Below, piece by piece: positions 3,748 to 56,777 of a DNA stretch of 64,000 nucleotides. The translations under genes and the position numbers were made by a program. Below the pieces are notes generated by a model. The model saw only the letters and a list, made by a program, of their open reading frames with translations, was not told where the DNA came from and did not search any database. The stretch covers positions 141,009 through 205,008 of the forward strand of contig CAYSHM010000002.1 of assembly GCA_964430885.1 (NCBI GenBank), read 5' to 3'. The stretch comes from an uncultured archaeon. Its GTDB lineage: Archaea > Thermoplasmatota > Penumbrarchaeia > JASLWR01. Each line of letters starts with the position of its first letter. The first letter of the stretch is position 1.

Positions 3748-3777
3748 GATGGGTGTTGTATGAAATAATGCTTGTTT

Positions 3778-7900: not shown

Positions 7901-10888
<2,988 letters not shown>

Positions 10889-28726: not shown

Positions 28727-28819
28727 TGAACACCCTCTCCTTGGATTGATAATCACGGTATAGATTAAATTCCATATTTAACATTTTGTGATAATTGGGA
28801 AAGGAATACTAGATACTGA

Positions 28820-34252: not shown

Positions 34253-37200
34253 TTAATCGAAAAATTCAAATTCGATATCGTCATCAAAACGTTCTCCACA
34301 GCCAGGGCAAACGGATATGTCCTCGCTGATTGGAGTTCCGCACTCTGAACAGATCATTTCGGTCTCCCATAGTTCATCACCGCAGAATGGGCAGAAATTC
34401 TCATCACGATCCACAGATGCACCGCAATTATCGCAAATCCCTTTACCTTCCTTTGTCATCCATATATTTCCGCATTCTGGACATGATCCATCCCCAAGTT
34501 TTACTTCGGCCCCGCAGAACGGGCATTTCTCATCCTTCTCTTCCTTCCCTGTTGTTTTTTTCCCATCACCCTTTGTGCTCAATTTATCAAATTCGTTACC
34601 GCAAGCAGGACATTTCTCGTCAGAAGGTTCAAGTTTCGTATCGCATTTTGGACAGTTCAACTGAAATCCTCCGGAGAATAGATTGGTTCCGCATTGTGAG
34701 CAAATGGAATCTCCATGATCGGCCTCCTCTCCGCAATTGGGACAATAGGTTAAATCGTCCTGGAATAATTCCTCGGTGTCTTCAGGCTCTCTCTGTTTCC
34801 TGAAGGTCATATACATCATGAAGAGAAGGACTATTATACTTATTATCAGTACCAAAGTGGAAGCAAGGTATAGATCCAGCTCAAAATCATCTTTCTCTTC
34901 TGTTTTGATAGGTGATTCTTTCTTCTCTTCTGTTGAAAAGTTTATTATATATTCCCTTCCCAGCATATGTCCTGCCTTGCTTTTCAGGGTGGATTTTATT
35001 GTTACAGAGAAATTATAGCCGTAGAAAAGATTTTCCTCGGGTACTATTATCAAAGTATGGTTGTTGTTGATCAAAAGATAATTAACGTTTAATGCTGGCA
35101 GTAGCACTATGTTTTCCTTTACGTTGGATAGACTTAGTTCCTGGTTGAAAACGATATTGATAGAGGTATCTACCTTTATTGAAGAATCATATTTATCAGG
35201 ATAATGCTCAAGAACCTTCAGTTCTCCCAGTAGTTTTTCGGTCTTGAAGGACCAGGTAATATTGCTACCTATATCATTCCCCCATTTGTCCTCCATTGTT
35301 CCGAGGATAGTAATATGGTACTGCTCCTCATAATCGAGGTCATTGCCAGGATCGAAGGATATGGTGCTGCCCTTAACTTCAAGAATGCCATCTATCAGAT
35401 CGCCATCCTGACCCTTTAGGAGTAATCCGTCATCGCCCACATTGCTTATCTCCTCGCTGAAAACCGCTTCAATATCGGTGTTAACAGGAACATTATTGGA
35501 TTCAGGCAATGGTTCTGCTAAGTTCATTATTATGTAAGGCGGAGTGACATCCATGGGCCCCAATATTCCAAAGGTTCCTTCCCGAGTCACATTGGCCTTA
35601 ATTATATTATTAACGGTATCAACAGATGAGAATGCGTCGGCCCTAACCCAAGTATCTGATTCATAAGTATATAGGTCCAGCCCCTCTTCTGTAAATATCT
35701 TAGATATGTCAAAACTATAATAATTAACACCTATTTCAATATAATCCCAATCTTCCATCTCGATACCCTGAACATCCAAGGTGAAGTAAAGACCTACTTC
35801 CCAGGTACCTTCGGGATTGCTTATCACCCCTGGATCGTTGATCAGGTTCAGATTGAGGACCGGCGGATTTCCTCTATTAACAAAATGAAGGGTGGCGGAT
35901 ACAGCACCGGAGGTCACTGTGATTGTGTCAAAGAATGGAACAGGGACAACTTCCAAAAGCATGGTGTCCCAGCCTGAATTTCCCTGCCGGTCCTTAACGG
36001 TCAATTTTACAATATAGTCTCCGGGAATATCAAATTGATATGAAGGATGAGGCCCATATAGTCTGACGAGATTCTGAGAGTAATTGAAGGACCATGTATA
36101 ATTCGTAATTTCCTGGTTGTCAACAGACCAAGTGCCATCGAATTCATAGTTGGATCCCTGGTAGATCCAATCATTACCTCCTGCGTCTACATTGGGTTCA
36201 GTAATATCGTTAACGACAACGGTCCATTCCTTAGTTTCATTGGTGAAGATCACAGTACTGTTCAAACCGGTGGAGAATCCCATCTTGGATGATATGATAT
36301 CATAGTAATATTGGATATTGTTATCAGAATGTAGGGTTTGCCTAACTACCCGAACAGGATCAGTTTCACCGCTGTGGTCCGTGCTGTATCTATGGCTGGA
36401 ATGGAGGGCCGGAGGAATGAGATCCCGATATCCTTTCAGGTCTATCCTTGTATATGGTATTCTGTATCCCATATCGTCCTTTGAGATGAAGGTGACGTAA
36501 TATTTATCCCAAATAATGCTATCATCTCCCTGAGGGATCTGATATTTATAGGGTATTGTGTTAACAAGAGTAGCATTGGAGTTATTGGTAAGTGAGATAT
36601 CATATCCTACTGAACTCTTTATGATAACATCCTCGAATAGAGAAGCGGATGAATCCATTTCAACACCTGCATGGTTTTCAGTAATAATAAAATCACTTAC
36701 GTGAGCCCATGCACCCTTTTCCAGGGTCAAACCGCATATGGAAGTGTTTGTGATCCGTCCGCCCAAAATGGTGATGTGTGCATTATTCACAACAATGCCT
36801 TTGCCTGGAATATCATAAAGTCTAATGTTCTCTGATTCCAGAGATGTCGATTGGGTCGAATTGAAAACAGTTATTCCGTTCCCTGTGATTCCGTACATTG
36901 TGATGTCCTGAATATTGATGTTCGAATTGGCAACGATAAGGCCGTTCTCGCAGTTCTTGAATCTGGACGATGACAGAACAGTATCGGGATTTATGCTGGA
37001 ATTAAATATCAATCCGCAGTAGTTATCTGTGAACTCGCAATTGCTAATAAGTACATTATCGCTGGCAACGAATAATCCCATTTGATCCAAGAAATCCATA
37101 GGCGAAGAAGCCCTTCGGTTGTTATCCGCTTGAAAACCGCAGTGTGATATTTTCATATGGTTCATCTGGAGGATTCCTCCGCTCTCCACAATGAGATTGT

Positions 37201-39235
37201 ACTGGTGGTTTCCATCTGTTACAGTGGATGTTATGTTGTTCTTCTCAGGATTATTGCCAGCCAATATCATTTGTCCACCGTTCTCGATTACAATTCTCCT
37301 TTTACCGTTCTCAGGGACTTGAAGATTGAGGTCGGTGCCCGAAAGGCTGAGGACTCCTCCCTCGGCAATTGTGATATTACCGTTGATAATCAAATCCTTG
37401 TTGATGATAGGGACATAATCAGTTACAGTCCAATCAGTCAAAATATCCTCTACACCCATTTCAAATTCTTTACTCATAGAGGAATTAACATAGAACTCAT
37501 GCAGATCATACAGCTCACCATATGCTATACCTAATGTATGGGGAGTAATATACAGGATCTCAGAGGAATTTCCTTCTAATATTGTCTGGATGCACTGGAT
37601 ATTGTTTATTTTTCCAGAGGAGCCCAGAGTTGTATTGATAATCTCATTTTCATTTACATCTTTGAGCACGACTTCCGCGCCTATAAGGGGCAGTCCGAAA
37701 GCATTTTCTGCCGAAAGATGAAGGAACCATTTCGTTGTTACCACAGAAGTGCCTGTGGCATCTGGGGCTGATAGACAGGTTGTGTTTATCAGATACATGT
37801 CGCCTGTACTGCACTGGAGAATGTCGATAGATGAGTTCAGAAATTTCGACATATTTTCCAATGAGTTTTCGGATATGGTCAGGTTCAGACTTCCATGGGT
37901 AAGGATGTCCGATCCTGAGCAGTTTTCCACCGTATTGTTGGAGAAATGGATATTGGATGAATCCAGGTCAAATAAGGCTTTTTCCGATGAATTGAACGAG
38001 TTCATTCCGATGTAGGCATCGGAGTTTTCCCAGCTCAAAATAGATGTAGTATTTATTGAGAGTATTTCATTATTCAATATCTCGGTACGCTTGGAATTAT
38101 TTAAGGAGATTCCAACTTGACATTCCTGAATAGTGTTGGAATCTATCGTGTTCCTCAATGAGAGCTGAGTAATATTGAACCCGGTGTAACAATTCATTAT
38201 TTCATTGTTCTTGAAAGTATTATCCAGCGAGATTTCTATGGCAATTCCGAATTTTCCCTTTCCTATGATGGTATTATTATGAATTGTTGAATTTTTCAGA
38301 AGTACATTATCCACGGCAGTGTCGTTCATATCTTCGGTATCATAAGTACCTTGAAAGGAGTTATGTGAAATTTCAATCTCCCGGGCCCACCATGTAAGAA
38401 TGTCTGTGGTTTCACCGATGAATGCATTTCCTGAAACCTGGCAATTGGTAACATTCAGCAATGCCAAGCCATTGGTGCACATGAAGGTACTGTTCATCAC
38501 AGAGGCACCTGATGTATCGAGGATGATCAAACCCGTATGGCAATTCTCGAACAATGTACCGCTCACAGCAGTTTTATTGGATCGAACCAGCATACCTGCA
38601 TTGAAAATGGGGAGAACTGCACTCTGAAAACCGCAGTTCTTAACCACAGAATTATGGATGTCCACCTGTTTGCTCCAGTTGAAGAATGCCTTGAACTGAT
38701 TACTTGTTCCGCTGATTAATTCCGAGGCGTCATCTTCACTTTGAAAATCACTATCCCAATCTGTAATGTTGATCACAGAGTTGGATTTCCCATAGAATAT
38801 GTACTGGCCGTCGAATGAAGTAAATATGACAATTGAAGAGTTGATGGAAGTGAACGAGGCATTTTCACCTAAAATGATATCGCCCCATATATTCAGGGTC
38901 GAATTGATCAGAAAAACCGATGAATTCGGTTTGACATCCAGCCAGCCGGTTATATTGATTGTTGAATTGGTGAGTTTCAGAGAGGAGGCAGTATTTAGAG
39001 TGATATTTCCAGATGCCATTATTTTTGAAGAATCGTAATCCAGATCATCACCGCTAGATATGTTCCAGTGGTCAGTGGAATTATTATAGATGGTCAGTCC
39101 ATCTGCGGTCTGTTCACCTGAATCCTGGGGTCCGCCAGTATCTCCAAGGACAAATTGATCACTTGCAGTAAAAATACTGAAAACCATAAGCAAAGCTACA
39201 ATAGCACTAAACGATCTCTTAACCCAATTTACCAT
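34253..39235 (-). CDS. Giant surface protein: right-handed beta-helix, PKD and SbsA/Big_5 Ig domains, TM and five cytoplasmic zinc ribbons
   Basis: Asn-rich parallel beta-helix repeats, VDAGG...YTWSF PKD, P....NVPVNTDIEAVFSE Ig, TM, and ten CxxC motifs at the C-terminus. SD GGTGA before the ATG at 39235. Confidence 0.88.
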   Translation of the reverse strand: MVNWVKRSFSAIVALLMVFSIFTASDQFVLGDTGGPQDSGEQTADGLTIYNNSTDHWNISSGDDLDYDSSKIMASGNITLNTASSLKLTNSTINITGWLDVKPNSSVFLINSTLNIWGDIILGENASFTSINSSIVIFTSFDGQYIFYGKSNSVINITDWDSDFQSEDDASELISGTSNQFKAFFNWSKQVDIHNSVVKNCGFQSAVLPIFNAGMLVRSNKTAVSGTLFENCHTGLIILDTSGASVMNSTFMCTNGLALLNVTNCQVSGNAFIGETTDILTWWAREIEISHNSFQGTYDTEDMNDTAVDNVLLKNSTIHNNTIIGKGKFGIAIEISLDNTFKNNEIMNCYTGFNITQLSLRNTIDSNTIQECQVGISLNNSKRTEILNNEILSINTTSILSWENSDAYIGMNSFNSSEKALFDLDSSNIHFSNNTVENCSGSDILTHGSLNLTISENSLENMSKFLNSSIDILQCSTGDMYLINTTCLSAPDATGTSVVTTKWFLHLSAENAFGLPLIGAEVVLKDVNENEIINTTLGSSGKINNIQCIQTILEGNSSEILYITPHTLGIAYGELYDLHEFYVNSSMSKEFEMGVEDILTDWTVTDYVPIINKDLIINGNITIAEGGVLSLSGTDLNLQVPENGKRRIVIENGGQMILAGNNPEKNNITSTVTDGNHQYNLIVESGGILQMNHMKISHCGFQADNNRRASSPMDFLDQMGLFVASDNVLISNCEFTDNYCGLIFNSSINPDTVLSSSRFKNCENGLIVANSNINIQDITMYGITGNGITVFNSTQSTSLESENIRLYDIPGKGIVVNNAHITILGGRITNTSICGLTLEKGAWAHVSDFIITENHAGVEMDSSASLFEDVIIKSSVGYDISLTNNSNATLVNTIPYKYQIPQGDDSIIWDKYYVTFISKDDMGYRIPYTRIDLKGYRDLIPPALHSSHRYSTDHSGETDPVRVVRQTLHSDNNIQYYYDIISSKMGFSTGLNSTVIFTNETKEWTVVVNDITEPNVDAGGNDWIYQGSNYEFDGTWSVDNQEITNYTWSFNYSQNLVRLYGPHPSYQFDIPGDYIVKLTVKDRQGNSGWDTMLLEVVPVPFFDTITVTSGAVSATLHFVNRGNPPVLNLNLINDPGVISNPEGTWEVGLYFTLDVQGIEMEDWDYIEIGVNYYSFDISKIFTEEGLDLYTYESDTWVRADAFSSVDTVNNIIKANVTREGTFGILGPMDVTPPYIIMNLAEPLPESNNVPVNTDIEAVFSEEISNVGDDGLLLKGQDGDLIDGILEVKGSTISFDPGNDLDYEEQYHITILGTMEDKWGNDIGSNITWSFKTEKLLGELKVLEHYPDKYDSSIKVDTSINIVFNQELSLSNVKENIVLLPALNVNYLLINNNHTLIIVPEENLFYGYNFSVTIKSTLKSKAGHMLGREYIINFSTEEKKESPIKTEEKDDFELDLYLASTLVLIISIIVLLFMMYMTFRKQREPEDTEELFQDDLTYCPNCGEEADHGDSICSQCGTNLFSGGFQLNCPKCDTKLEPSDEKCPACGNEFDKLSTKGDGKKTTGKEEKDEKCPFCGAEVKLGDGSCPECGNIWMTKEGKGICDNCGASVDRDENFCPFCGDELWETEMICSECGTPISEDISVCPGCGERFDDDIEFEFFD

Positions 39236-39540
39236 ATGTCTCACCACATCCACATTATTCATATTTCATGTGAATTTTTATATTCCTGCACTACGAAAAA
39301 CTTAGTATATTTATTTTGTTCATTTAGATTGATTTACTATGAAAATATCGCTGATATTTGGGATTTCAGCGGTTGGTGTTTTAAAACTATAAATAATTAT
39401 TGCAAGTGGGAACGTAGGTTATATAAGTGAAGTTAACCATTTTACAGTAATATTATTTAGAATTCCCTAACAAATGAAAGGCTTATTGGAATATACATGT
39501 TCAGGATTGCATGTCCAATGGCTGCACAGGAGGCATTGTG

Positions 39541-41598
39541 ATGGACAGGATCAATAAAAAGAGTATATTTTCATTGATGTTGATATTCATTATGATATTC
39601 ACATTTGGTTGGACATTGAAACCTATGAGTGATAAGGAAGTTGGATACAGTGATAGATTTGATGATCAGGCAGCAGGAAGCTTCTTAAGTTCCCTTAGGG
39701 CTGATGATAATACAATGAACAATGCCACCCTTTTGGCCCCGAATTCATCAACCTTAGATGATCTGGACAACATTACTGATTTTGTGGATTGGTATAAGAT
39801 ATCAGTAATGGGCGGCGACCTTTTAAAGATAAATTTATCAGTCCCGGAAACTGGGGACTTTGATCTGGCATTGTTCAATGAGAGTGCAAATTATACTGGA
39901 GCAAGTTCTAATCTGGGTGCCGGATTGTCAGAGGAGATAGTTATTGTCAGCCCAGTTGAGCAAATATATTTTATTCAGGTACTGGCTTTTCAGGGAAACG
40001 GAGAATATGAGCTCAATGTAACATTGGACCCCAATTATCAGTCTGATGGGAACGACTATACCTATACGGCAGTGGAAATATGGCCTCCTTATTCAATTAA
40101 CGGAGCACTCGTAAAGGGAACCGACGATCATGATTATTATAAAATAAATCTTGATCACGGGGATATCATTGATGTGGAGCTTACTTATCCTGATACCCAA
40201 AATTTCGATCTATTCCTGCTGGATGACCAATCCGATATAATCAACACATCTGAGAATTTCACAGGTTTTGAAAAAATCATTTATACCATTGCCGACCAAG
40301 ATCATTATTATATTCTTGTCAGTTCAATTTGGGGATCAGGAAGTTATAGTTTGAATGTGGCTGTAAACCGATCAAACTCCCAGCCGGATATAACCGATAT
40401 TTGGCCGGATGATATGACTCCCAATGTTACCGAGGGAACAAATATTTCTTTCGGGGTTGATGTGTCAGATCCAGATGCCGATGTTATCAGCTATGAGTGG
40501 TCTATCCAGGGCGTATTTGTCGACGTGGCCTCCGGTGAATTGACAATATATACCCAATACAATGGCGATTTTTCTCAAGGGATTTATGAAATTGCCTTGA
40601 ACATAACTGATGGATATTACTATCAGGTGATTGAATGGCTCTTAACGGTTGAGGATCTTAACCCCGAACCAGTAATAATCAGTAAGGATCCAGAAACCCA
40701 ATCTATTGCCGTTTCTGAAGGTTTGGCGGCAACATTTACAATAGATATTTCAGACCCTGATGGAAGCACGCCCCTTATCCAGTGGTTATATGACGATGTC
40801 ACTATAGATAATGAGAGCGGTAGAACCTTTGTCTTCCACCCTGATTATTCCAGTTCTGGTAATCACACAATTAAAGTCAAGGTAATAGACAGTGGCGATA
40901 ATCAGCAGTTTGTGAGCTTCACCTGGAATATCAATGTGAAGAATACTGATCGGCCTCCCATGATAATTGATGCAGGGCCACTCTCTAGTGCACAAAAAAC
41001 TGATGAAGAAACACCCATTTCATTTTATATAAACGCAACAGACCTTGACGGCGATGCCATCACATATAAATGGTTTATCGGCTCCTCGCACCAGGCGGGG
41101 ATAACTGCCTCGGTTTTAAATTTCGTGCCGGATTACAGCAGTGGGTCCCAGGGGCCCTATGTCATCCTAGTTCAGATCATTTCCGGCTCTTCTCTGAGAG
41201 AATACAACTGGACTCTTACCGTGATTGATGTGAATAGAGCACCTTCATTGAATACTACGGGATTTCTCCCAGAAGACCAAGGGGAATTTGTCCAGGGTGA
41301 AAAGGTTGAAATGTCAGCTTCTGCAGAGGATCCTGACGGTGATTCAGTTACCTACCGCTGGGAGATATTGGAGACCGGGGAACTATTATCGGAAAGTCAG
41401 ACCTTTAACCATCAATTCGAAAAACCAGGAGACTACACCGTAAGTTTGACAGTTTATGATGGCAAAGGAGGAAATGTTACCAAGGAGGTCTCAATAAAGA
41501 TAACGAAAAAGGAAGATTCTCCGGGATTTCTTTTCAGTTATTTGATGAGCGCAATTCTTCTGATATTAGTTATAATGCATATTTACAGAAAAAAATAA
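39541..41598 (+). CDS. Surface protein with PPC-like and PKD/Ig domains and PGF-CTERM sorting signal
   Basis: DFVDWYKI / DDHDYYKI and DFDLALF PPC repeats, DPDGD Ig repeats, C-terminus SPGF + TM + RKK. Confidence 0.85.
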   Translation: MDRINKKSIFSLMLIFIMIFTFGWTLKPMSDKEVGYSDRFDDQAAGSFLSSLRADDNTMNNATLLAPNSSTLDDLDNITDFVDWYKISVMGGDLLKINLSVPETGDFDLALFNESANYTGASSNLGAGLSEEIVIVSPVEQIYFIQVLAFQGNGEYELNVTLDPNYQSDGNDYTYTAVEIWPPYSINGALVKGTDDHDYYKINLDHGDIIDVELTYPDTQNFDLFLLDDQSDIINTSENFTGFEKIIYTIADQDHYYILVSSIWGSGSYSLNVAVNRSNSQPDITDIWPDDMTPNVTEGTNISFGVDVSDPDADVISYEWSIQGVFVDVASGELTIYTQYNGDFSQGIYEIALNITDGYYYQVIEWLLTVEDLNPEPVIISKDPETQSIAVSEGLAATFTIDISDPDGSTPLIQWLYDDVTIDNESGRTFVFHPDYSSSGNHTIKVKVIDSGDNQQFVSFTWNINVKNTDRPPMIIDAGPLSSAQKTDEETPISFYINATDLDGDAITYKWFIGSSHQAGITASVLNFVPDYSSGSQGPYVILVQIISGSSLREYNWTLTVIDVNRAPSLNTTGFLPEDQGEFVQGEKVEMSASAEDPDGDSVTYRWEILETGELLSESQTFNHQFEKPGDYTVSLTVYDGKGGNVTKEVSIKITKKEDSPGFLFSYLMSAILLILVIMHIYRKK

Positions 41599-46014: not shown

Positions 46015-48693
46015 TTGTTATTGAACAGGTCATTGTCAAAGGGTAAATTGATTTTCATGTGTGCGATTTTGGTCGCTGGATTATTGTTCACAGCTCTAGA
46101 TTTTTCTGGAGATGTGAACCGATCAGATTCGGCCATATGGAAAAAGGCACCGATTGATGGTATGTTTTATGATGGATCTGAAAGGGTCAATGAATCCAGC
46201 ATACCAGTATTTGAGGAACCCTTTTTAGGGTATTCCTTAATAGATAAGGATAAAAGCACAGCTATCGTAGAGGGCGGGAAAGCTACTCTATCAGGTTCAC
46301 CCATTCCCGATGTAGATTCGGATGTTATCATCCCATTGGATTGGCTGCCTGATCCTGTGCACGATTATTCATTTCATCCAAATGCCATGACTTACGATAC
46401 ACAAAGCAATGCTCTGGTTCTATCCATGCAGGGTACGGGGGAGCTTCATCTGGTCAATAAGGACAGCGGTGATCTCATTGATGAGATTCAGCTCGATATT
46501 GATACCGATAACAATACAGGTATCGGTTATGGTAATGGTGGTTATTATTATTCGGTTGGAGGCGGGAGTGATTCCACTATTGATCTTTATAGATATGATA
46601 AGGCTACGGAGAAATCAATAGCTTTCGGGGTGAACACTTCAAATAAGGATGGATTTCCCCTTGTAGTCCTTGAGAATTCAATAATAAGGGGTAGGACTTA
46701 TCAGGATGGAAAGCAAAATTGGGGCACAATCAATATACTAGAAAAAATACCCCTGGCAAATCCGGATGAAATAGATACTACCCATATGCTGGATTTCAAC
46801 GGTGTCCAGGATCTAGCCTATGACGGAAACTATATTTGGGTTCTGAAGGATACAAATGACGTTTCATTGTCTCTCTACAGCAAAAACGGTGTGCTCGTTG
46901 ACGACTTTCCAGATCTCAATCCTGTTTTCTCCCTTGATGATGGCTTCAAGGCAAGGGGGCTTGCTTACGCTGGTAACTATCTGTATATCCTGGTATACGA
47001 GGATGTGGAGGACCAGGGTGAATCGAGTTTCTTGTTAAGGCTGTCCTTTGGAAAACGGTACTATGATAGTGGTAGCGTTATTTCTAAAACATTCTATCAG
47101 AGTTCAAATCCGGTTGCTTCTGTAAAAATCGAAGCAGATGTTCAGCAACCTTCTTCTACGAATATTGAATATTATGTTGGGTCTGGAAATGCTGGAGATT
47201 GGAAGAAGATAAGCAGTGATGATTGGACTGGAATTGGTTCTGCTTATACCAAATTGAAATACAAACTGGAATTGAGTTCAACCAATTCTGATAAGACTCC
47301 AATTGTTACAAATATTAAAATTTCCTGCAATTCAGTTAACAAACCTGAGATAATCACTCCTGATAACAATATATGGACTGGTGGAAAACCTGATATGCGC
47401 TGGAATTTCAATGATAAAAATGACCAGGACAACCAAACAGCTTTTAACATACTTATATCCAATGTTTCAACCTTCGACAGCGTTCTAAAGGATATCAATG
47501 AGGAGAAGAGGGAAGGCGGTTATAAATATCCTCAGAAAATGAAAGGGGGTGCATATTACTGGAAGGTGAGGACCAAGGATGAGCTGATGGGTTGGAGTCC
47601 CTTTTCAGATGTGGCAGTTTTCAATGTTGACGTTGATAGCCCCGGGGGATTAGTAAGAATTAACGATGAGAACAAGTCAACTACAGACAGCTTTGTCAAT
47701 CTTGAAATTCTTGTGAGCGATTCTTCCACCAATGTCACGGAGGTGCATATAAGCGAGGAAGAGCGCTCAAGCGCACCAGAGTTTTATTGGCAGCATTATG
47801 AGAAAGATGTGAACTTTACAGTATCCGAAGAACTTGGCGAGAAGATAATTTATGTATGGTTCAAGGATGAAGCAGGCAATGTTGGAGGTCCTGCTTCTGC
47901 AGTTATTCAGCTCAAGAAAGCTTCTGATGATGACGAAGAAGGTGCCTTAGGGATGGGTAAGATTGGGAAAATAGATGTCCTATATCTGTTAATAGCCGGA
48001 TTGATACTGTTATTGATCCTGATAATTTTGATAAAAACCAGCGGCAGCGGACACGACCCCTACTACGATGATGACGAAGATGAAGAATATGAGGAATACG
48101 GAGAGGAAAAGGGCTCGATGAGTTCGTTGGAGGCTATCAGAAGAAAACATCTTGAGCAGGTTCAATTTGACTCGAGATATAATGAGGATGAAGTTGAAGA
48201 AGGATTTTTAGTGACTCCCAATAAATATGGGGGAAGCGGTGGATACGAGCAGAGTCCATATTCCAATGTTTACGGAGGTTATGGTGGTTCAGGAAGATAC
48301 GGCAGTTCCCCTTATGATGACGATGAGCTGAGCCTTGAATATTCATCCTATTCTGCACCACCATCTTTGGACGATTTCATCAATAAATTGGAAGGCGGAC
48401 TGGATCGAGAAGCTCAAAAACCGTCAGGTGATTCTTCAAAGGAAGAACCTCCTGAGGAAATGGATGATGAAAAGAGGTACGAGAAGAAGGTGGAAAAGAT
48501 CAAAGAACAGATTGCGATTCTGAAGGAAAGGGAATCCGGTTTGAAAGAAAAGATCGAAAAAACATCCAATAATGATAAGGAAGAAGAGTTAAAGAAGAAC
48601 CTCGGCGACATCGAGAAATTGAGGAGGGACCTAGAGAATTATCTAGAAGAAGGTAGTAAACCTAATGATAATTTGCCCCCACCCCCTCCTTAA
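46015..48693 (+). CDS. Single-pass surface protein (beta-propeller-like + FN3/Ig) with acidic Tyr/Gly-rich, coiled-coil, poly-Pro tail
   Basis: Signal-like N-terminus, QDLAYDGNYIWV / RGLAYAGNYLY propeller blades, YYWKVRTKD FN3, TM VLYLLIAGLILLLILIILI, ending NLPPPPP. Confidence 0.8.
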   Translation: MLLNRSLSKGKLIFMCAILVAGLLFTALDFSGDVNRSDSAIWKKAPIDGMFYDGSERVNESSIPVFEEPFLGYSLIDKDKSTAIVEGGKATLSGSPIPDVDSDVIIPLDWLPDPVHDYSFHPNAMTYDTQSNALVLSMQGTGELHLVNKDSGDLIDEIQLDIDTDNNTGIGYGNGGYYYSVGGGSDSTIDLYRYDKATEKSIAFGVNTSNKDGFPLVVLENSIIRGRTYQDGKQNWGTINILEKIPLANPDEIDTTHMLDFNGVQDLAYDGNYIWVLKDTNDVSLSLYSKNGVLVDDFPDLNPVFSLDDGFKARGLAYAGNYLYILVYEDVEDQGESSFLLRLSFGKRYYDSGSVISKTFYQSSNPVASVKIEADVQQPSSTNIEYYVGSGNAGDWKKISSDDWTGIGSAYTKLKYKLELSSTNSDKTPIVTNIKISCNSVNKPEIITPDNNIWTGGKPDMRWNFNDKNDQDNQTAFNILISNVSTFDSVLKDINEEKREGGYKYPQKMKGGAYYWKVRTKDELMGWSPFSDVAVFNVDVDSPGGLVRINDENKSTTDSFVNLEILVSDSSTNVTEVHISEEERSSAPEFYWQHYEKDVNFTVSEELGEKIIYVWFKDEAGNVGGPASAVIQLKKASDDDEEGALGMGKIGKIDVLYLLIAGLILLLILIILIKTSGSGHDPYYDDDEDEEYEEYGEEKGSMSSLEAIRRKHLEQVQFDSRYNEDEVEEGFLVTPNKYGGSGGYEQSPYSNVYGGYGGSGRYGSSPYDDDELSLEYSSYSAPPSLDDFINKLEGGLDREAQKPSGDSSKEEPPEEMDDEKRYEKKVEKIKEQIAILKERESGLKEKIEKTSNNDKEEELKKNLGDIEKLRRDLENYLEEGSKPNDNLPPPPP

Positions 48694-48894: not shown

Positions 48895-49848
48895 TTGGTT
48901 CATGAAGATGATGAATTACAGAAAATACAGGACGGCCTAGCATGTCCTGAGTGCGGTCAATTTTTGGGCCCCATGAATATTTGTCCGTATTGCAGAACTA
49001 AGGTCAAAGGAAGAGTAGATATTAAGATAATCAAAGCCGTAAGTATTCTTGTAGCTATATTGGGCGTTGGATTATTACTTCTGTGGGCAAATCTGCAAGA
49101 GCCGTCAGGGATGAAGATAGGAGATATATCCAAAAGACAGAACTATGCCTTTGTTGAAATAGAAGGTGAGATAACAGGAGATTCCATGTACTATGTGGAG
49201 GTTTCCGACGAAGGCGAAGTATTTCCATCGGGTCTCAGTTTCTGGCTTGATGATGGAACCGGAGTCATAAAGGTCAAGACCTATGATGAGGTTACCAAGG
49301 ATATAATCGAGGCTAAAAAAATACCTGTGGAAGGCGATAGGGTAGTCATTAAGGGCAATGTGATGTTCAGGGAGGATGACATGTCCATGACCCTGCAGAG
49401 TCCGGATAATATTGAGATAGTCAAGGATACTGAATCACCAAAATCCATGATGATCCAGGATATATCAGGAAAGGACGAGACTGAAGATTTCAATGGGAAA
49501 TTTGATGAAATGGATGTGAAATCGTCAACAATTAGTGGGAGTCTCACCGGGATAGACAGTCAGACCACAAGCTATAGGGACCTTTACGATAATCTTTATT
49601 TTGAGGTAAAGGATACTCAGGGATATTCCATTCTAATCAAAGTACCTTATGCGATTTACTCTGCTTATGGAGGTTCAATCGATGAAGGAGTTAAATCTTT
49701 GCCTCTCAACCAGGAAGATATAGGGGATGAGGATATCAAGGCGACGGGTCATTTGGTATGGGACCGATACAATAATCCTACAGGGGGATATGGTGGCAGT
49801 TGGGTTTTAGTGCTGCAGGATATTACGAATATTAAATTGGAGGTGTGA
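48895..49848 (+). CDS. Zn-ribbon + TM + OB-fold nucleic-acid-binding domain protein
   Basis: CPECGQFLGPMNICPYC, one TM, and OB fold VEIEGEI...FWLDDGTGVIKV...GDRVVIKG. TTG start after a G-rich SD (ORF open from 48820). Confidence 0.82.
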   Translation: MVHEDDELQKIQDGLACPECGQFLGPMNICPYCRTKVKGRVDIKIIKAVSILVAILGVGLLLLWANLQEPSGMKIGDISKRQNYAFVEIEGEITGDSMYYVEVSDEGEVFPSGLSFWLDDGTGVIKVKTYDEVTKDIIEAKKIPVEGDRVVIKGNVMFREDDMSMTLQSPDNIEIVKDTESPKSMMIQDISGKDETEDFNGKFDEMDVKSSTISGSLTGIDSQTTSYRDLYDNLYFEVKDTQGYSILIKVPYAIYSAYGGSIDEGVKSLPLNQEDIGDEDIKATGHLVWDRYNNPTGGYGGSWVLVLQDITNIKLEV

Positions 49849-49850
49849 AG

Positions 49851-51137
49851 ATGGCTAAAGGAAATAAGGAGTCCTCTAGCCAGGATGAAAGAAGTGAGAA
49901 AATGAGACCCTGTCCTGCCTGCGGAAAGGAATTTGGAAGAAAGAAGAGAAAATGTCCTCACTGTGCAGCTCCCATGGCTTTCCGTGTGAAGGAATCCACA
50001 ATAATTAAGGTCTCCTGTGTCGTATTTGTTTCGCTCACGATTATCCTGGCTTTGTTAGCTGTTTTCAGTGACACTGAAGTTTCAAAAGTCGAGGATTTGA
50101 AGGAGGAGGACAGTTTTGAGATAATGCGTTTCAAGGGGAAAATTGTGGAAAGCCCAAGATACTATCCAGAGGATTACAGTGATATCGGCCGAATGAAATT
50201 ACTGCTGAATGATACCACTGGAGAGATAACTATCAATGTTGCAGCCAATATAGTTGAAGAACTAATGGATCAGGGGAAAATACCATCCTTGGGTGATGAG
50301 ATAGATGTGATGGGCAGCGTAGGAGTGTTTAAAACCGGAGGGGTCACGGATATGGATATTAAGATATCCGACAATGGTCTGCTGTTGGAGTCTGGATATG
50401 AATATGATTCATACAGTTATTCTCTCACTCTTACAAATCCCGACAATCTTGAGATTATGAGCAACGATTATGATTCCCTTTCGATTTCGGACATCGCAGG
50501 TACTGGCGGTGATGCATATGAGAACGGTAAGAAGGTGAAAATCGAGGGGACCGTAATCTCGTCGGTGACAAATTGGTCATCTGCATACCAGATCACCCTG
50601 AAAGATATGACCACAGACGATACTATTCTTCTATATGTTCCTAAGGATGTTGTCGAACTGTCAGGTGTGGATTTATATTCTGAAGATGATATTGCATATA
50701 ATCTGAAACCTGGCTCAGAGATATCTATTCTTGGTTCTCTTATGTTCTATGAAAATGTGAAATATCCTCAATATAGCAAGTGGGAACTCATACCGACTTC
50801 AGCCGGAGATAACTTGAAGATAGCTGGAAGGAATGCCATAAAGATCAATAAGGAGGGTCAGGGTTTCAGCGTGGATATGCTTATGGGTAATAAAGACCTC
50901 TACGAAGGTGCCGACGTCAGCCTGGAAAATGTTGTTATAGACCGTATGGAGGAAGGCGACCTTTATGTCAAAGATCCAGGAGGTACTTACTCGATAATGG
51001 TTTTCAGCTATGATCCCATTACTGATATTGATGTTGGGGATAGGGTAAATCTTTTTGGAGAGTTCACTTATTATGCACCCCAAGATATTTGGGAAATAAA
51101 GTTGAGCGATGCAGAAAATATTTGGGAGGTGTCATAG
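49851..51137 (+). CDS. Zn-ribbon + TM + multiple OB-fold domain protein (paralog of upstream gene)
   Basis: CPACG..CPHC, TM, LLNDTTGEITI...GDEIDVMG, plus further OB-like repeats (GDRVNLFGEF). SD GGAGGTG. Confidence 0.82.
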   Translation: MAKGNKESSSQDERSEKMRPCPACGKEFGRKKRKCPHCAAPMAFRVKESTIIKVSCVVFVSLTIILALLAVFSDTEVSKVEDLKEEDSFEIMRFKGKIVESPRYYPEDYSDIGRMKLLLNDTTGEITINVAANIVEELMDQGKIPSLGDEIDVMGSVGVFKTGGVTDMDIKISDNGLLLESGYEYDSYSYSLTLTNPDNLEIMSNDYDSLSISDIAGTGGDAYENGKKVKIEGTVISSVTNWSSAYQITLKDMTTDDTILLYVPKDVVELSGVDLYSEDDIAYNLKPGSEISILGSLMFYENVKYPQYSKWELIPTSAGDNLKIAGRNAIKINKEGQGFSVDMLMGNKDLYEGADVSLENVVIDRMEEGDLYVKDPGGTYSIMVFSYDPITDIDVGDRVNLFGEFTYYAPQDIWEIKLSDAENIWEVS

Positions 51138-52475
51138 ATGTCATTACCGATTGATGTTATACTGATAACCATAGCTATTACTTGTCTTGGCGCGTTTTTA
51201 TCAGGCCTACTGGCTTTCCTGCCCGGCTTTCACATCTATAACTTAATGGGAATCGTTATGATAATGTACATGGGTTTTGCAGAGGCAATCCCTGGAATAT
51301 ATGTTGCAGGAGCTATGCTGGGAATGATGCTTGGCTTTGTGATGTACTTTTCCTCAGTGAGCACACTTTATTTCCAGGCCCCTGATGATTCAACAATGTT
51401 CTTTCAATTTCCTAGCCAGCAATTCCTTATGAAGGGTAAGGCCCATGCTGCAGCAATCCTAGGTACCGTCGGTTGTTTGTTGGGTGTTCTTATAGTGGTT
51501 ATTGGGATACCTCTCTTCAGCCCCTTGTTGAAGATTTTCGTGGATGTTTTCAAGGAAACCCAGTTCTTCCTTATAGGTCTGGTAATCACATTTCTCCTGA
51601 TGTCCGAATGGCCCAAGGATTTCGGGCAGGGCCAGACAAAATGGCAGAGGCTGAGAGACGGATGGTCAACCCTGACGTGGGGTTATCTGACCTTCGCTCT
51701 GGCCGGGATTCTCGGAATGATCAATTTTTGGCACCCACTAATACCTGTGGAAAACGCTTTCCAAAGCCTTCTTCCGGTTTTCGTTGGGCTCTTTGCTATT
51801 CCATCGATCATATTGAACATTATTTCAAGGACCCGGTTGCCGGAGCAGTATGTTTCCAAGAGCGTATATCTGCGTTTCCATCATTTGATCCAAAGCGGAT
51901 CATCCGGAGGTCTTGGGGGGATTTACGGTGGAATTGCACCCGGTGTAACAGCAGGGCCTGCAGGTTATATGTCAGGCCACGCCACGGCTCAGTCGGGTAC
52001 CAACAATTTTCTCATGAGCATGAATGTCACCCGAATTGTGTATTTCGTCGGGGCTATGACCCTCCTCCTGAATCCCGCCATCCATTTGAGGAGAGGCGGT
52101 GCTGCAGTTCTTACCAACCTATTCTATACGCCCTCAAATCCTACAGAATACACCGTTATACTAGCGGGTCTATCCCTGGCTACTCTGGTTTCATTATTTG
52201 TGGTACTTGGAATATCGAGATTGAGCGGGAAGATACTCCGAAAGATTAGTTTCAAGCACATCTCCTGGTTTTCTCTGTTCCTGCTTATTATCATAGTGCT
52301 GGTATTTACAAGCTGGCAGGGTCTATTGATTCTGATGGTGACCACTGCACTCGGTATGATGTGTGTTCTTGTGCAGACCCGAAGATCGCATCTTTTAGCA
52401 GTTCTATTACTACCGCTGTTCCTGAATATGTCAGGGGCGGGTGGTACATTAGCTAGCTTCCTGGGGTTGGTTTAA
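51138..52475 (+). CDS. TctA-like (DUF112) tripartite tricarboxylate transporter-family permease, archaeal type
   Basis: GLLAFLPGFHIYN, APDD....PSQQFLMKGKA, LLPVFVGLFAIP, RRSHLL. About 11-12 TMs. Confidence 0.85.
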   Translation: MSLPIDVILITIAITCLGAFLSGLLAFLPGFHIYNLMGIVMIMYMGFAEAIPGIYVAGAMLGMMLGFVMYFSSVSTLYFQAPDDSTMFFQFPSQQFLMKGKAHAAAILGTVGCLLGVLIVVIGIPLFSPLLKIFVDVFKETQFFLIGLVITFLLMSEWPKDFGQGQTKWQRLRDGWSTLTWGYLTFALAGILGMINFWHPLIPVENAFQSLLPVFVGLFAIPSIILNIISRTRLPEQYVSKSVYLRFHHLIQSGSSGGLGGIYGGIAPGVTAGPAGYMSGHATAQSGTNNFLMSMNVTRIVYFVGAMTLLLNPAIHLRRGGAAVLTNLFYTPSNPTEYTVILAGLSLATLVSLFVVLGISRLSGKILRKISFKHISWFSLFLLIIIVLVFTSWQGLLILMVTTALGMMCVLVQTRRSHLLAVLLLPLFLNMSGAGGTLASFLGLV

Positions 52476-53609
52476 ATGAAGGGATTGACACATTACATCG
52501 TGGGTGTAGCCATAGCTACTTTTTTCATAGATGCGGTACAGATGACCATATTCGATAAATCCTGGATATTGTTATTAGGCGGAGTTTTCGGTATACTTCC
52601 TGATTTTATGGATTTCAGATTTGCACGTTATCTCATTGTTCATGATTATGAGGTAACTCCAGGCCATAAGGACCTGAATCCCCGTGTGGTCTCCGAAACA
52701 GTGGCCAAGGCTATTGACGAGGCCGCGGAAAAGAGTAAATCTATCAAGATCAAGCTTCATTCAATGAAGGTCAGCAGGGATTTTTGGAGACAATATTCAG
52801 TACAGTTCGATACTGATAAGAAGGAGATAATAACAAAAATCGGGCCACTGGTAACTACTGGACAGGTTCCCCAGCCCGGAACCGCACCCAAAGGGGACAA
52901 GGCCATTGCTGTAGCAAAATATAAAGCGGATATTAATCACACATATCATTTGGCAACGAATATTGATATCTGGCATGGCAACGACTGGGAATTTGTACCC
53001 GAGGGCGATAAAATAAGGGTTGACTTCATTCCCTGGCATAGAAAGGTTTGGCATTCATTTACTGCAGGTCTTCTCTTTGGACCTATCGGATTCCTTATCT
53101 ATGGTGATTGGAGTGCTATGATGTCCGGAGATGTCCTAGGTTTCTTTACCGCCCAGGCGGGATGGCTTGCAGCTCTTATCATCGTCCTGGGTTTCTGGGG
53201 TCATGTGGTCTGTGATCAGTTGGGCAATTTAGGTTCCAATCTTTTCTATCCCTTTACAAAGAAGAGGGCAAGAGGTTTGAAGATGACCAGTGCTTCAGAT
53301 CCCTTCTCGAACATATCCTTCGTATATGCCTCCATTGCTCTGATAATCTTCAATTTCAATGCCTTTAATTATAGGCATTCCTTTATGATGTGGGGCATCG
53401 ACAACTTCCACGGAGTGAATTATTTCATCGGATTGGCGGAATATTTTGTATTGGTAATTATCCTCCCAATGGTCCTTCTGAAGCTGGCAATTATAGGCTA
53501 CAAGAAAAAGTTCATTGAACCAAGAAAGAAAAAGGAAGAGGAGCTTTCCAATGAAGAAAAGGAAGCTTTAGATTCACTTGCAGAGATAACCGAGATGGCC
53601 GGGGGATGA
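52476..53609 (+). CDS. Membrane-bound metal-dependent hydrolase (YdjM/DUF457-like)
   Basis: MKGLTH, LPDFMD, WHRKVWHS and GHVVCD metal-ligand motifs with TMs. Confidence 0.85.
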   Translation: MKGLTHYIVGVAIATFFIDAVQMTIFDKSWILLLGGVFGILPDFMDFRFARYLIVHDYEVTPGHKDLNPRVVSETVAKAIDEAAEKSKSIKIKLHSMKVSRDFWRQYSVQFDTDKKEIITKIGPLVTTGQVPQPGTAPKGDKAIAVAKYKADINHTYHLATNIDIWHGNDWEFVPEGDKIRVDFIPWHRKVWHSFTAGLLFGPIGFLIYGDWSAMMSGDVLGFFTAQAGWLAALIIVLGFWGHVVCDQLGNLGSNLFYPFTKKRARGLKMTSASDPFSNISFVYASIALIIFNFNAFNYRHSFMMWGIDNFHGVNYFIGLAEYFVLVIILPMVLLKLAIIGYKKKFIEPRKKKEEELSNEEKEALDSLAEITEMAGG

Positions 53610-53879: not shown

Positions 53880-56777
53880 ATGATTAGGAAATTTGATATA
53901 AAAACAAAATCAGTATCAGGGCACAGAACCAAATGTATGAATCAATTGATGGTTCTAATGGTATTAACGCTATTGTTCGTCTCCTATTGGCCTTCTACTG
54001 GAGGTATGGATAGTATTTGGGAACCCAATAGGACCGGCAGTTTTCGATTATTGATCAGTGAGGTGGGACCTTACGGTAACGATGCTGTTGAAGAGGATTG
54101 GGTCGAACTGATGGTTGTTGAAGGCAGCGGTGATATTTCCGATTACGTCTTGACCACATATGATTCCCAGAACAGGGATGAGGCCTTTTCTACTTCAGCT
54201 GTGACCGTAAATGAAGGAGATTTTATTTTGGTACATTACAACGCTACTGTTGATGATGAAACAGACGCTGCAGGTGATGTTAATTCCAACGGTTATATTG
54301 ATATTTATATCAATTCATCCGACCTTTCAGGTACAAATGAACAGGTGGCACTGTTCACAGCTTTGGATTATTCGGATATTTGCGATGCAGTTTGCTGGTC
54401 AAAGGATGATCCTAGTTCTTCAGAAGTTGATGATTCCCAGGAGATCGTGAACCTTGGTGAGTGGCCGTCTACATCAGTTGAGGACATGGTGCCATCCGCA
54501 GATCTTGAGAAAGGAATCAGTATAGCTAGAAGGTTCAACAGGAATGATGATAATACAAGGGACTGCTGGTATATGGAACCTGAGCCTTCACCAGGTGCCC
54601 CTAACCGCTTATTGGACTTCAACGGGACCGCGCTTATTAAAAGTGTTCACCTCTCATCGAACCCTAAATATGTTTGCTTTGAAGTAACCCAGGGCAGTGG
54701 GAACGTGTCCTCATTAATGATATCCGATTTGGATGGTGTCAGTGACTTTTTCAGCCTTCAGGAAATAACCGGAGATCAAGGGGACATGGTTAATATCATT
54801 TACAGCCAAGGGGTATCGGAAACCGATGATATCGGAGATATGAATAATAATGGAATGATAGACATTTATTATGATGAAAAATTGCCCACTTCCACAATGG
54901 ATTCCATAGTTTTGGTCCACGGTTGGAATGTGCTGGACGCTCTAGCATGGCACTCAGGAACAATTAGTTCTTCCGAACAGAAGGACCTTGATAGACTGAT
55001 ATCTATTGGTGAATGGGACGGTAATGCCACCTCACACTGCATCAATGTATCCGATCTGGATGATGAGCAGGAGATAAGAAGGAAATCAGATATAGCTGAC
55101 ACAAACTCTGTATCTGATTGGGAGATAGCAGCGGTATCCGGAGGGTTTGAGATTCAGGAATTCACCCTTGAGACCTTCGGTGTCGATTCCGTAACATGCG
55201 GTATTTCTCCAGATACCAGTTTTCAACAGCTCTCCTCAATAATTGATTCTGCCCAAACCTCAATATGTGTGGAGGTTTACATATTTGATAATTATGACCT
55301 TGCGGCAAAAATACTCGCCGCTCAAGAGCGGGGAGTGGAAGTAAAGATACTTCTGGAAGGCGGTCCGGCTCACGGTGTCCCCGATATGGAGAAATACATT
55401 ATGTCCCTGATACATGAAAAGGGAGGGGATGTCAGATACATAATAAATGACCCGGATAAAGGAATAAACGAGAGGTATCCGAATATCCACTGCAAATTCG
55501 TTGTGGTGGATCATAGATATACCTTTATCACTTCAGAGAATTTCAGACTGGAAGGAATACCTAGGTTCGGTTCATGGGGCAACAGAGGATGGTCAGTCAC
55601 AGTTGATTCCGCAGATTGTGCTGATTATTTTGAACAGGTATTTCTATATGATTTTTCCAGCAACAGTCCGGATATTAAACCGTATGAAAAAACACATCAT
55701 CAATATGGTGAACCTTCCAAGGAATTCGATCCATCGGATAACAGCTACAAATCCAAGGAAGGCGATCATCCGATTGTCTTCAATCAACAGATAGTTAAGG
55801 GGAATATATCTGTTACTCCCGTACTCTGTCCTGACCATACATCGGAGTTGGAGGCAGTGGTGCCATTGCTGCAAAGTGCCCAAGAATACATTTATGTTCA
55901 GCAGCACAGTGTAAGCGAGAGCTGGCATGATGGTAAAAAGTATATCGATAATCTATATCTGGAAGAATTATATGCTGCAGCCCGCAGAGGTGTTAAGGTT
56001 AGGATTCAATTTGACGAGACCTTCAAATTCAGCAGCGATCATTCAGATATTATCAATCAGACGAACGAGATAGCAGGAGATGAAGATTTGGATATGGCTG
56101 CGATATTCACCTCCAATGAAGCCCTTGGGATCGAGAAAGTACATAACAAAGGTATTATTGTTGACGGAAGCAAGGTGCTGATATCATCAATAAACTGGGC
56201 TACCAATTCAATATACCAAAACAGGGAAGTTGGGATTATAATTGAAAATCTGGAGGTAGGGGATTATTACCGACAGGTGTTTGAATGGGATTGGAACAAT
56301 GCCGATACCGATATCACGGGTACAATAACCGGTATTATCGAGGATACGGAAGGGAGCCCAGTGGAAGGAGCCGAGGTCTATATTGAACTGGATGATGGAG
56401 AAAGGCTAAGATCGGTTACTATGGCAAACGGGTCCTTTTTACTTGAAGGCGTGCCTATTGGGGTTAACAGGATTCATGTGAATGTGTCAGGGTACCAATC
56501 AAATCAAGCTACAGTAGATGTAGCAATGGGTGAGATGGTAAATCAGAATTTTGAGTTGATAAAAAATATTAAAGAAGGTGAAGGGAAAGGAGCATCATTC
56601 TTGGCTATCGGAGTGGTCGTTTTATTGTTGATCCTGTTCATTATCATATTTTTTGCAGTTGTCATTGCTGCAAAAAAGAATAGGAAAGAGGATGATGAAA
56701 AGAAGATTGTCAGATTACATGGTTCAAAGGAACCTTTTGATGATCAAGTGGAAACAGAAAAGGAAAATAGATCTTAA
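53880..56777 (+). CDS. Surface phospholipase D-superfamily enzyme with lamin-tail domains and carboxypeptidase-regulatory-like domain
   Basis: Two HKD motifs (IHCKFVVVD, VHNKGIIVD), LTD (LLISEV...DWVEL...PSPGAPN), GSPVEGAEV domain, signal peptide and C-terminal TM. Confidence 0.88.
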   Translation: MIRKFDIKTKSVSGHRTKCMNQLMVLMVLTLLFVSYWPSTGGMDSIWEPNRTGSFRLLISEVGPYGNDAVEEDWVELMVVEGSGDISDYVLTTYDSQNRDEAFSTSAVTVNEGDFILVHYNATVDDETDAAGDVNSNGYIDIYINSSDLSGTNEQVALFTALDYSDICDAVCWSKDDPSSSEVDDSQEIVNLGEWPSTSVEDMVPSADLEKGISIARRFNRNDDNTRDCWYMEPEPSPGAPNRLLDFNGTALIKSVHLSSNPKYVCFEVTQGSGNVSSLMISDLDGVSDFFSLQEITGDQGDMVNIIYSQGVSETDDIGDMNNNGMIDIYYDEKLPTSTMDSIVLVHGWNVLDALAWHSGTISSSEQKDLDRLISIGEWDGNATSHCINVSDLDDEQEIRRKSDIADTNSVSDWEIAAVSGGFEIQEFTLETFGVDSVTCGISPDTSFQQLSSIIDSAQTSICVEVYIFDNYDLAAKILAAQERGVEVKILLEGGPAHGVPDMEKYIMSLIHEKGGDVRYIINDPDKGINERYPNIHCKFVVVDHRYTFITSENFRLEGIPRFGSWGNRGWSVTVDSADCADYFEQVFLYDFSSNSPDIKPYEKTHHQYGEPSKEFDPSDNSYKSKEGDHPIVFNQQIVKGNISVTPVLCPDHTSELEAVVPLLQSAQEYIYVQQHSVSESWHDGKKYIDNLYLEELYAAARRGVKVRIQFDETFKFSSDHSDIINQTNEIAGDEDLDMAAIFTSNEALGIEKVHNKGIIVDGSKVLISSINWATNSIYQNREVGIIIENLEVGDYYRQVFEWDWNNADTDITGTITGIIEDTEGSPVEGAEVYIELDDGERLRSVTMANGSFLLEGVPIGVNRIHVNVSGYQSNQATVDVAMGEMVNQNFELIKNIKEGEGKGASFLAIGVVVLLLILFIIIFFAVVIAAKKNRKEDDEKKIVRLHGSKEPFDDQVETEKENRS

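Follow-up and report, generated by a model that had tools for sequence, protein, structure and literature searches.

The stretch analysed here (the window) comprises 64,000 nucleotides of contig CAYSHM010000002.1 from an uncultured archaeon of the Thermoplasmatota, whose genome is 3.13 Mb in size and 91.6% complete. It contains four co-oriented genes, A to D, that encode two zinc-ribbon proteins with OB folds, a membrane protein of the TctA family and a membrane protein of the YdjM family, and these are followed by an accessory gene for a surface enzyme of the phospholipase D (PLD) family:

48895..49848, + strand: gene A (OB1), open reading frame (ORF) with start TTG after a GGGGGG run and stop TGA
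49851..51137, + strand: gene B (OB2), ORF with start ATG and stop TAG
51138..52475, + strand: gene C, TctA-family membrane protein, start ATG abutting the OB2 stop, stop TAA
52476..53609, + strand: gene D, YdjM-family membrane metal hydrolase (by family), start ATG abutting the gene C stop
53880..56777, + strand: accessory PLD surface enzyme with a PLDc_2 match, 270 nt past gene D

According to the original prediction, the four genes abut on one strand, and both the ORFs and the sequence at the junctions agree: A and B are joined as TGA-AG-ATG, whereas the stop of B (TAG) and that of C (TAA) are each followed directly by the ATG of the next gene. A GGAGGTG motif lies just upstream of the start of gene B and of gene C, and translation is coupled across A-B-C-D. 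In a metatranscriptome library that belongs to the study from which the window probably comes, three contigs match the window with 100% identity; the junction of A with B is spanned by one of them and that of C with D by another, which gives a weak hint that the operon is expressed, with DNA carry-over as a possible source of the same contigs; the parts of the operon without RNA contigs are uninformative on expression. A scan of the window for sigma-70 promoters and terminators returned chance level only, and the sigma-70 model does not apply to archaea.

Genes A and B had been described as paralogs with a zinc ribbon, a single transmembrane (TM) helix and OB folds, and several methods concur. 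The OB1 hidden Markov model (HMM) finds B at E 2e-42 and the OB2 HMM finds A at E 4e-34, both proteins have an N-terminal CxxC...CxxC arrangement followed by one TM helix (residues 45-63 in A, 54-72 in B), and the OB family PF01336 matches B at 30.2 bits and A at 22.4 bits, the latter below the cut-off of 27. OB2 additionally matches PF13742 at 17.6 bits, is matched by the OB1 HMM in three stretches, and carries an additional C-terminal OB-like domain relative to OB1. In an alignment of 21 OB1 sequences the cysteines C17, C20, C30 and C33 are invariant, and the (L)xDxTG motif pointed out earlier for the OB folds recurs as DDGTG (residues 119-123 of A; 21/21 sequences), with D119 to T122 invariant and G123 nearly so. 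The AlphaFold2 (AF2) model of OB1 (pLDDT 79.7) shows a short zinc-ribbon region at the N-terminus, then a long TM helix and, after it, two beta-rich domains, and gave 265 matches at E<=1e-3 in a Foldseek search of the PDB. Nearly all of the top 50 matches listed are OB proteins that bind single-stranded DNA (ssDNA), namely Teb1, archaeal and human RPA, bacterial SSBs (proteins that bind single-stranded DNA) with two OB folds, POT1, BRCA2 and telomere end-binding proteins, led by Teb1 AB (E 3.9e-8), P. abyssi RPA and RPA70 DBD-A/B bound to ssDNA. On this model the ectodomain of OB1 is a tandem OB fold of the RPA/SSB type, the fold that had been foreseen, and as such it would be expected to bind ssDNA. 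The zinc ribbon lies N-terminal to the TM helix in 22/22 OB1 and 21/21 OB2 orthologs from genomes and in 32 of the 37 complete OB ORFs of metagenome modules. Because the segment before the TM helix of B is basic (14 K/R vs 6 D/E), the positive-inside rule predicts that the zinc ribbons of A and B are cytoplasmic and that the OB folds face outwards, the orientation assumed at the outset. Weak matches to DUF4131, all below the cut-off, were seen in the OB1 protein of locus L013 (E 1e-3), in locus L037 (E 3e-4) and in the OB protein of a methanogen genome, G021 (E 6.5e-4), to which we return below.

Gene C matches the Pfam family TctA (PF01970) at 102.5 bits (cut-off 28.9) over profile positions 2-422 of 423, and a protein-atlas look-up confirmed the family. 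In an alignment of 24 sequences the residues H32, D83, E157, P159, H281, R415 and R416 are invariant. As far as sequence can tell, gene C belongs to a distinct TctA subfamily, here called C-type, that is always found in this gene module and that comprises at least 874 clusters at E<=1e-10, some of them labelled Chloroflexota/Anaerolineae by NCBI. The partners of canonical TctA had been noted to be missing beside gene C, and profile searches extend this to the whole genome, in which TctB (PF07331) and TctC (PF03401) have 0 matches at 91.6% completeness while positive controls matched. The competence domain of ComEC (PF03772), a channel that most archaea had been said to lack, likewise has 0 matches in the window genome and none in gene C, and an NCBIfam search returned no family for A, C or D. 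The same genome encodes a second TctA protein, without an OB neighbour (contig C5, locus L118, 8222-9595, + strand; PF01970 198.6 bits), and 600 nt from this paralog lies a short YdjM-family gene on the opposite strand (10207-10854, - strand; 215 aa; PF04307 40.2 bits). Exactly two TctA-family genes are also present in 5/5 other module genomes checked, and a plasmid search with the second-paralog protein found only two cyanobacterial TctA genes, the neighbours of which are uninformative.

The membership of gene C in PF01970 also fits a different function, in which the TctA-like protein would import a small anion such as a carboxylate or phosphate ester, the OB proteins would replace TctC and TctB as binding or scaffold subunits tethered to the membrane, and the YdjM-like protein would modify the import. 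It is established that TctA relatives are secondary anion transporters (the TTT family, in the relevant passages of PMC10133366), and OB folds are able to bind ligands other than nucleic acids. Opposed to this are the lack of TctB and TctC in the genome and the model of OB1, which matches tandem OB folds of the ssDNA-binding kind and not the sugar- or metal-binding types.

Gene D matches YdjM (PF04307) at 46.5 bits (cut-off 29). Its alignment of 27 sequences has invariant H6, D43, D46, H188, H193, H243 and D247, together with a GSN..P.T.R loop, and its AF2 model (pLDDT 82.1) contains six helices and a beta-rich insert of ~140 residues (residues ~57-186) that is conserved and lies outside the coverage of the Pfam model. 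Averaged over the 27 sequences, the side of the protein that bears the N-terminus, the insert, the GSN loop and the C-terminus has 14.5 lysines and arginines, compared with 1.8 in the three opposite loops, a distribution from which the positive-inside rule predicts a cytoplasmic position for both the insert and the candidate metal ligands. The original prediction had made the hydrolase a processing or membrane-remodelling partner; its predicted place of action is the cytoplasmic face and not the outside. A complex prediction of D with the zinc-ribbon/TM segment of OB1 (residues 1-72) scored 0.01 against a mark of 0.32, which speaks neither for nor against an interaction. When looked up in the protein atlas, the insert (residues 50-190) gave a single 0.78 match, to an unnamed cluster. 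A resemblance of the insert to a small beta barrel or OB fold was also considered, and the Foldseek matches (E 0.05-1) were too faint to use.

The accessory protein is 965 residues long and consists of an N-terminal TM segment or signal, two PLD (HKD) domains, a CarboxypepD_reg domain and a C-terminal TM anchor, with Pfam matches to PLDc_2 (109 bits in two stretches) and PLDc (26.5 bits). Its nearest solved sequences are the endonuclease Nuc (1byr, E 7e-6), followed by Zucchini/MitoPLD, the PLD4 exonuclease and NucT; by this relationship it is nuclease-like and lies closest to the superfamily's nuclease branch. PLD orthologs stand directly after the YdjM-like gene in loci L009, L010, L011 and L014 and one gene further in L013, and lamin-tail domains (LTDs) are present in the PLD orthologs of L011, L013 and L040. 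Since the window genome has only 5 PLD genes in 3.13 Mb, a chance adjacency to the operon is unlikely.

A PLD enzyme and a YdjM-like protein side by side could also be imagined as a phosphodiester system of the envelope, in which the two would cleave such bonds in the head groups of phospholipids or in a polymer of lipid-linked or teichoic-like kind and the TctA-like protein would move the anionic product or precursor. In Pfam, YdjM shares a grouping with zinc phospholipase C and P1 nuclease, and gene D is found repeatedly beside PLD-family genes, including cardiolipin-synthase-like ones in L035 and L054. The PLD domains are, however, nearest to nucleases and not to phospholipases, the OB folds are RPA-like in the model, and PLD proteins of the module carry LTDs, which the pertinent passages of two papers report on surface nucleases (PMC8289736, PMC3929857).

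The four-gene linkage, a conserved neighbourhood of which had been proposed as a check, holds across archaea, bacteria and metagenomes. A scan of species genomes with C returned 6 loci, 6/6 in the order OB1-OB2-TctA-YdjM, and the PLD gene is present in five of them; the contig of the sixth ends before it. With the D alignment, 29 genome loci were found, 28 of which have a TctA-like gene directly upstream and 24 an OB1-like gene, with 4 more cut by contig ends. Their hosts are Thermoplasmatota (including DHVE2/Aciduliprofundum), an Aenigmatarchaeota metagenome-assembled genome (MAG), Verrucomicrobiota, Lentisphaerae and Victivallales, and a second, diverged OB gene is present in the bacterial loci. 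Metagenomes contained 390 stretches with a relative of D, and counted on the best 80 of these 390, a TctA-like gene lies upstream of D in 33 of the 54 loci whose upstream sequence is 1.6 kb or longer (L038 and L052 among them) and OB genes in 21 of the 35 loci where it is 4.5 kb or longer. The occurrence of the same gene order in distant lineages puts the linkage far beyond chance. Within the Thermoplasmatota, D is patchy: 8 of 301 sampled genomes have it at E<=1e-30, i.e., all 4 of the window's family, one from another family and 3 from a third. Each of three bacterial genomes of the Planctomycetes-Verrucomicrobia-Chlamydiae (PVC) group (G042-G044; L273, L274, L275, L278, L279, L280) has two copies of the module, one with two OB genes and one with a single larger OB gene. 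The DHVE2 loci L016, L021 and L033 encode (at about 2300-5590) a ~1,080-residue surface protein that contains a PKD domain, matches PF01336 strongly (50-65 bits) and overlaps the start of OB1, and similar giant OB-bearing proteins lie upstream of the module in L042 and L047.

Flanking genes were annotated at 33 module loci, the window included, and in 12 of them an LTD gene and/or a PLD or endonuclease/exonuclease/phosphatase (EEP) nuclease gene lies beside the module, upstream in some and downstream in others (window, L011, L012, L013, L040, L042, L062, L076, L080, L099, L109 and L111). In the Aenigmatarchaeota locus L011, five genes on the same strand run directly into OB1 and encode DeoC, a phosphopentomutase-like protein, a nucleoside/AMP phosphorylase, a cytidine deaminase and a PNP/UDP phosphorylase. 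A DeoC gene is also found after the module in L062 and a PNP gene in its vicinity in L076; HD phosphohydrolases flank L011, L013, L040 and L021, and MazG precedes L046. Seventeen further annotated loci have D without TctA or OB genes ("solo" loci); at 4 of these 17 an LTD or LTD-PLD gene follows D directly, and at 3 a MutS2-like gene stands beside it. The recurrent neighbours point to extracellular nucleic-acid breakdown and nucleoside catabolism as the probable context of the module. That LTD, PLD or EEP nuclease-like genes and nucleoside-catabolism genes recur in separate lineages argues against a small-anion importer, and the deo, PNP, cdd, HD and MazG neighbours argue against a role in the envelope.

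Most archaea are not known to have ComEC, and an OB/TctA-like pair of methanogens is the only genetic lead on how DNA crosses the archaeal membrane. In Methanococcus maripaludis JJ, in-frame deletion of either MMJJ_13020, which encodes an OB protein with one TM helix, or the adjacent MMJJ_13030, whose TctA-like product has 11 TM helices, abolishes natural transformation and could be complemented, as set out in the passages on these genes in Fonseca et al. 2023 (PMC10133366). The same passages describe the TctA-like homolog of Methanoculleus thermophilus as essential for transformation and a membrane thermonuclease as likewise essential, and propose the TctA-like protein as the archaeal DNA transporter (PMC10133366). 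The module is in this respect less new than was first claimed: it had been called uncharacterised, but the pairing of an OB protein with a TctA-like protein and the DNA-transporter hypothesis were published in 2022/2023, as the relevant parts of that paper attest (PMC10133366). A literature search on TctA-like proteins in natural transformation retrieved only Fonseca et al. 2023 and its preprint, and nothing relevant came from a search for literature linking TctA with YdjM or from one on DUF112 in archaea, in which DUF1127 dominated the results.

Methanococcales genomes were reached through an McrA motif scan and the class was searched with the TctA alignment, which located a TctA relative in 36/40 genomes of the class Methanococci. 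In genome G021 the match lies at the coordinates given in the corresponding passage of PMC10133366, and here a 203-residue OB/TM gene (PF01336 36.3 bits) abuts a 398-residue TctA-like gene, the TAA of the former being followed directly by the ATG of the latter. Aligned by hhalign, the window TctA subfamily and the G021 TctA-like protein are related with a probability of 99.7% over 379 columns. Of the 20 Methanococci genomes that yielded loci, 8 have an OB gene ahead of the TctA-like gene as judged by HMMs trained on the module, and in two genomes of the Methanocaldococcus type (G001, G006) Pfam finds no OB gene at this position. In these two (L241, L264) the TctA-like gene is followed directly by an LPG_synthase_TM gene, a pairing unlike that of the Methanococcus type. 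The OB protein of G021 (L261 4954-5565) has a Cys-rich tail (C...C..C in the last ~40 residues) and no N-terminal ribbon; the tail would be extracellular if its OB fold faces outward, as the topology in the window suggests.

The window system and the methanogen pair share a single-pass PF01336-type OB protein encoded directly 5' of, and abutting, the TctA gene, the lack of TctB and TctC, and a surface nuclease of a membrane-anchored type, which is a thermonuclease in the methanogen and PLD-type in the window. They differ in that the window has two OB genes with 2-3 OB folds each and an N-terminal zinc ribbon, a YdjM-like gene inside the operon (the YdjM gene of G021 is ~300 kb away) and a distribution that includes bacteria. 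An N-terminal zinc ribbon is found in 0 of 8 distinct Methanococci OB genes, and on the basis of this one outgroup lineage the ribbon appears to travel with the C-type/YdjM module. Taken at the level of sequence and gene order, the window system is a divergent, enlarged variant of the published methanogen pair and not its ortholog.

Other known systems offer partial parallels. Like ComEC, the module brings together an OB fold that faces outwards, a polytopic membrane part and a metal hydrolase. Unlike in ComEC, these parts are separate proteins, the membrane part has a TctA fold and no PF03772, and the hydrolase, of the YdjM type, has a predicted cytoplasmic orientation, whereas the ComEC nuclease acts outside. 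With TctABC the module shares a protein that matches PF01970 over the whole profile, yet the partners are OB proteins and a hydrolase in place of TctB and TctC, and the Pfam score is low (102 vs 198 bits for the second paralog). A third parallel is provided by loci in which LTD surface nucleases adjoin uptake and nucleoside-catabolism genes and DNA serves as a nutrient, exemplified in the relevant passages of two papers by Hvo_1477 of Haloferax volcanii (PMC3929857) and by the Izemoplasmatales (PMC8289736). As in the module loci, membrane-tethered nuclease-type enzymes with LTDs occur there near uptake and nucleoside-catabolism genes; in contrast to the window, the nucleases are SNase-type and the transporters nucleoside or ABC-type, and the passages concerned make no mention of an OB/TctA/YdjM module (PMC3929857, PMC8289736).

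On balance, we consider it probable that the four genes and the accessory PLD gene form a single membrane system that captures nucleic acid from outside the cell and imports it or its breakdown products. Outside the cell, the membrane-anchored, nuclease-like PLD enzyme would cut DNA, and the two single-pass proteins would bind the single-stranded product on the outer face through their predicted RPA-like tandem OB folds. The TctA-family protein would carry the cargo through the membrane, by analogy with the M. maripaludis deletions, and at the inner face the YdjM-type metal hydrolase, if oriented as the positive-inside rule indicates, would process what comes in; more speculatively, the conserved zinc ribbons on the cytoplasmic side may connect the OB receptors outside with the parts inside. 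The link to nucleic acids that had been postulated for the module draws support from LTD, PLD or EEP nuclease neighbours at 12/33 loci, from neighbouring salvage genes and from the methanogen genetics, to the extent that these are covered in the passages of PMC10133366. The original prediction had left competence and nutrient scavenging side by side. Of the two, scavenging (for phosphorus and nucleosides) is more likely to be the chief function, and transformation may arise as a by-product, because nucleoside-catabolism genes of the deoC/PNP/cdd type adjoin the module and because ComEC is present in 3/3 module-bearing PVC genomes; the retention of ComEC by these carriers disfavours the competence half of the proposal.

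A number of observations weigh against the capture and import of nucleic acid. TctA proteins are secondary transporters of small anions, and the same PVC bacteria already possess ComEC (one or two genes in each of the three genomes). Gene D has no solved relative by fold or sequence: Foldseek against the PDB gave nothing at E<=1e-3, VIA wide had a best Z of 6.0 and nothing specific, and a PDB profile search gave nothing below E 0.08. The window's own PLD protein has no LTD according to Pfam. At 21 of the 33 annotated loci, including most of the bacterial ones, there is no nucleic-acid-related neighbour, as the import of a small anion would allow. Lipid-related neighbours occur as well, i.e., a patatin (L060), a Tle1-like phospholipase (L037), MlaA (L064) and the cardiolipin-synthase-like PLD genes of L035 and L054, and at 6 of the 17 solo loci D stands in an envelope-glycosylation context of methyltransferase, PMT_2 and DUF2298 genes; both suit the envelope role, as does the LPG_synthase_TM gene that adjoins the Methanocaldococcus-type TctA gene. 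These solo loci (L082, L088, L104, L105, L106 and L113; metagenomic, GC 0.62-0.66) have a shorter YdjM-like gene within a conserved operon without TctA or OB genes, ordered AAA protein, cupin, YdjM-like protein, methyltransferase, PMT_2 glycosyltransferase-like protein and DUF2298 protein of ~1,600 residues. The methanogen comparison is itself affected, since C shares 21% identity with the G021 TctA-like protein (59 bits, E 7e-14) and the second paralog, which has no OB neighbour, shares 27% (119 bits, E 4e-34). A quick unrooted tree resolves three long-branched groups (C-type, second-paralog type and Methanococci) and, for want of a canonical TctA outgroup, does not settle their sister relations.

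Because C resembles the methanogen protein less than the second paralog does, the methanogen genetics transfers to the window by design and not by orthology, and the existence of a closer paralog without OB partners in the same genome calls for caution in transferring the methanogen result by name. The suggested comparison with Methanococcus transformation genes therefore succeeded in part: a pair of the same design is essential there, as the relevant passages of PMC10133366 describe, but its nearer relative in the window genome is the second paralog and not C. The requirement of that pair for DNA uptake nevertheless speaks against an importer of small anions (same passages, PMC10133366), which we regard as unlikely, and in view of the evidence on both sides set out above we hold the envelope phosphodiester system to be quite unlikely.

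The transport could also run outwards, with the module releasing DNA, nucleotides or a derived compound to the surface, e.g., into a biofilm matrix, the hydrolase preparing the cargo and the OB arrays holding it. The predicted position of the hydrolase active site at the cytoplasmic face would suit export, and the direction of transport is set neither by gene order nor by computation. Nonetheless, the adjoining catabolic deo and PNP genes fit import, and uptake in the methanogen depends on a pair of the same design (relevant passages of PMC10133366), which makes export very improbable. Within the preferred reading of nucleic-acid import, a more specific version may be put forward tentatively, and we think it rather doubtful: a ComEC-independent importer common to archaea and bacteria, in which a TctA fold would move ssDNA or oligonucleotides received from RPA-like OB arrays and a ribbon-coupled cytoplasmic YdjM hydrolase would process the strand.

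Elsewhere the window encodes numerous proteins of very large size and strong acidity, which have hydrophobic N- and C-terminal segments and presumably lie at the surface:

14618-19219, + strand: large acidic presumed surface protein, pI 4.0-4.6
19597-23925, - strand: large acidic presumed surface protein, pI 4.0-4.6
26552-28756, - strand: large acidic presumed surface protein, pI 4.0-4.6
34253-39262, - strand: large acidic presumed surface protein, pI 4.0-4.6
39511-41598, + strand: large acidic presumed surface protein, pI 4.0-4.6
46015-48693, + strand: large acidic presumed surface protein, pI 4.0-4.6

The acidic protein just 5' of the operon has 892 residues and its conservation does not go beyond the nearest relatives (L009, L010), and the ORF at 28820-33232 (- strand) encodes a basic protein (pI 9.0) of 1,470 residues without a predicted TM helix. 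The acidity of the OB domains, which had been presented as one of their traits, turns out to be general to the surface proteins of this organism, all of the large ones in the window having a pI of 4.0-4.6, while the OB ectodomains of orthologs are at pI 5-7 in DHVE2 archaea and 6-10 in bacteria; it was accordingly dropped as a clue.

Relative to the published pair, the window variant adds a distinct TctA subfamily, pairs of zinc-ribbon OB proteins, a YdjM-type hydrolase predicted to face the cytoplasm, a nuclease-like PLD partner and a spread over two domains of life. If ComEC-independent import were true, a secondary-transporter fold would serve as a conduit for a polymer, and YdjM/DUF457 would gain its first defined role. 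The carriers of the module include uncultured marine Thermoplasmatota, DHVE2 archaea, a DPANN MAG and PVC bacteria, along with proteins labelled Chloroflexota. Given this wide spread and the nucleoside-catabolism genes found next to it, the module could be a common route by which cells in sediments and seawater draw on extracellular DNA as a nutrient.

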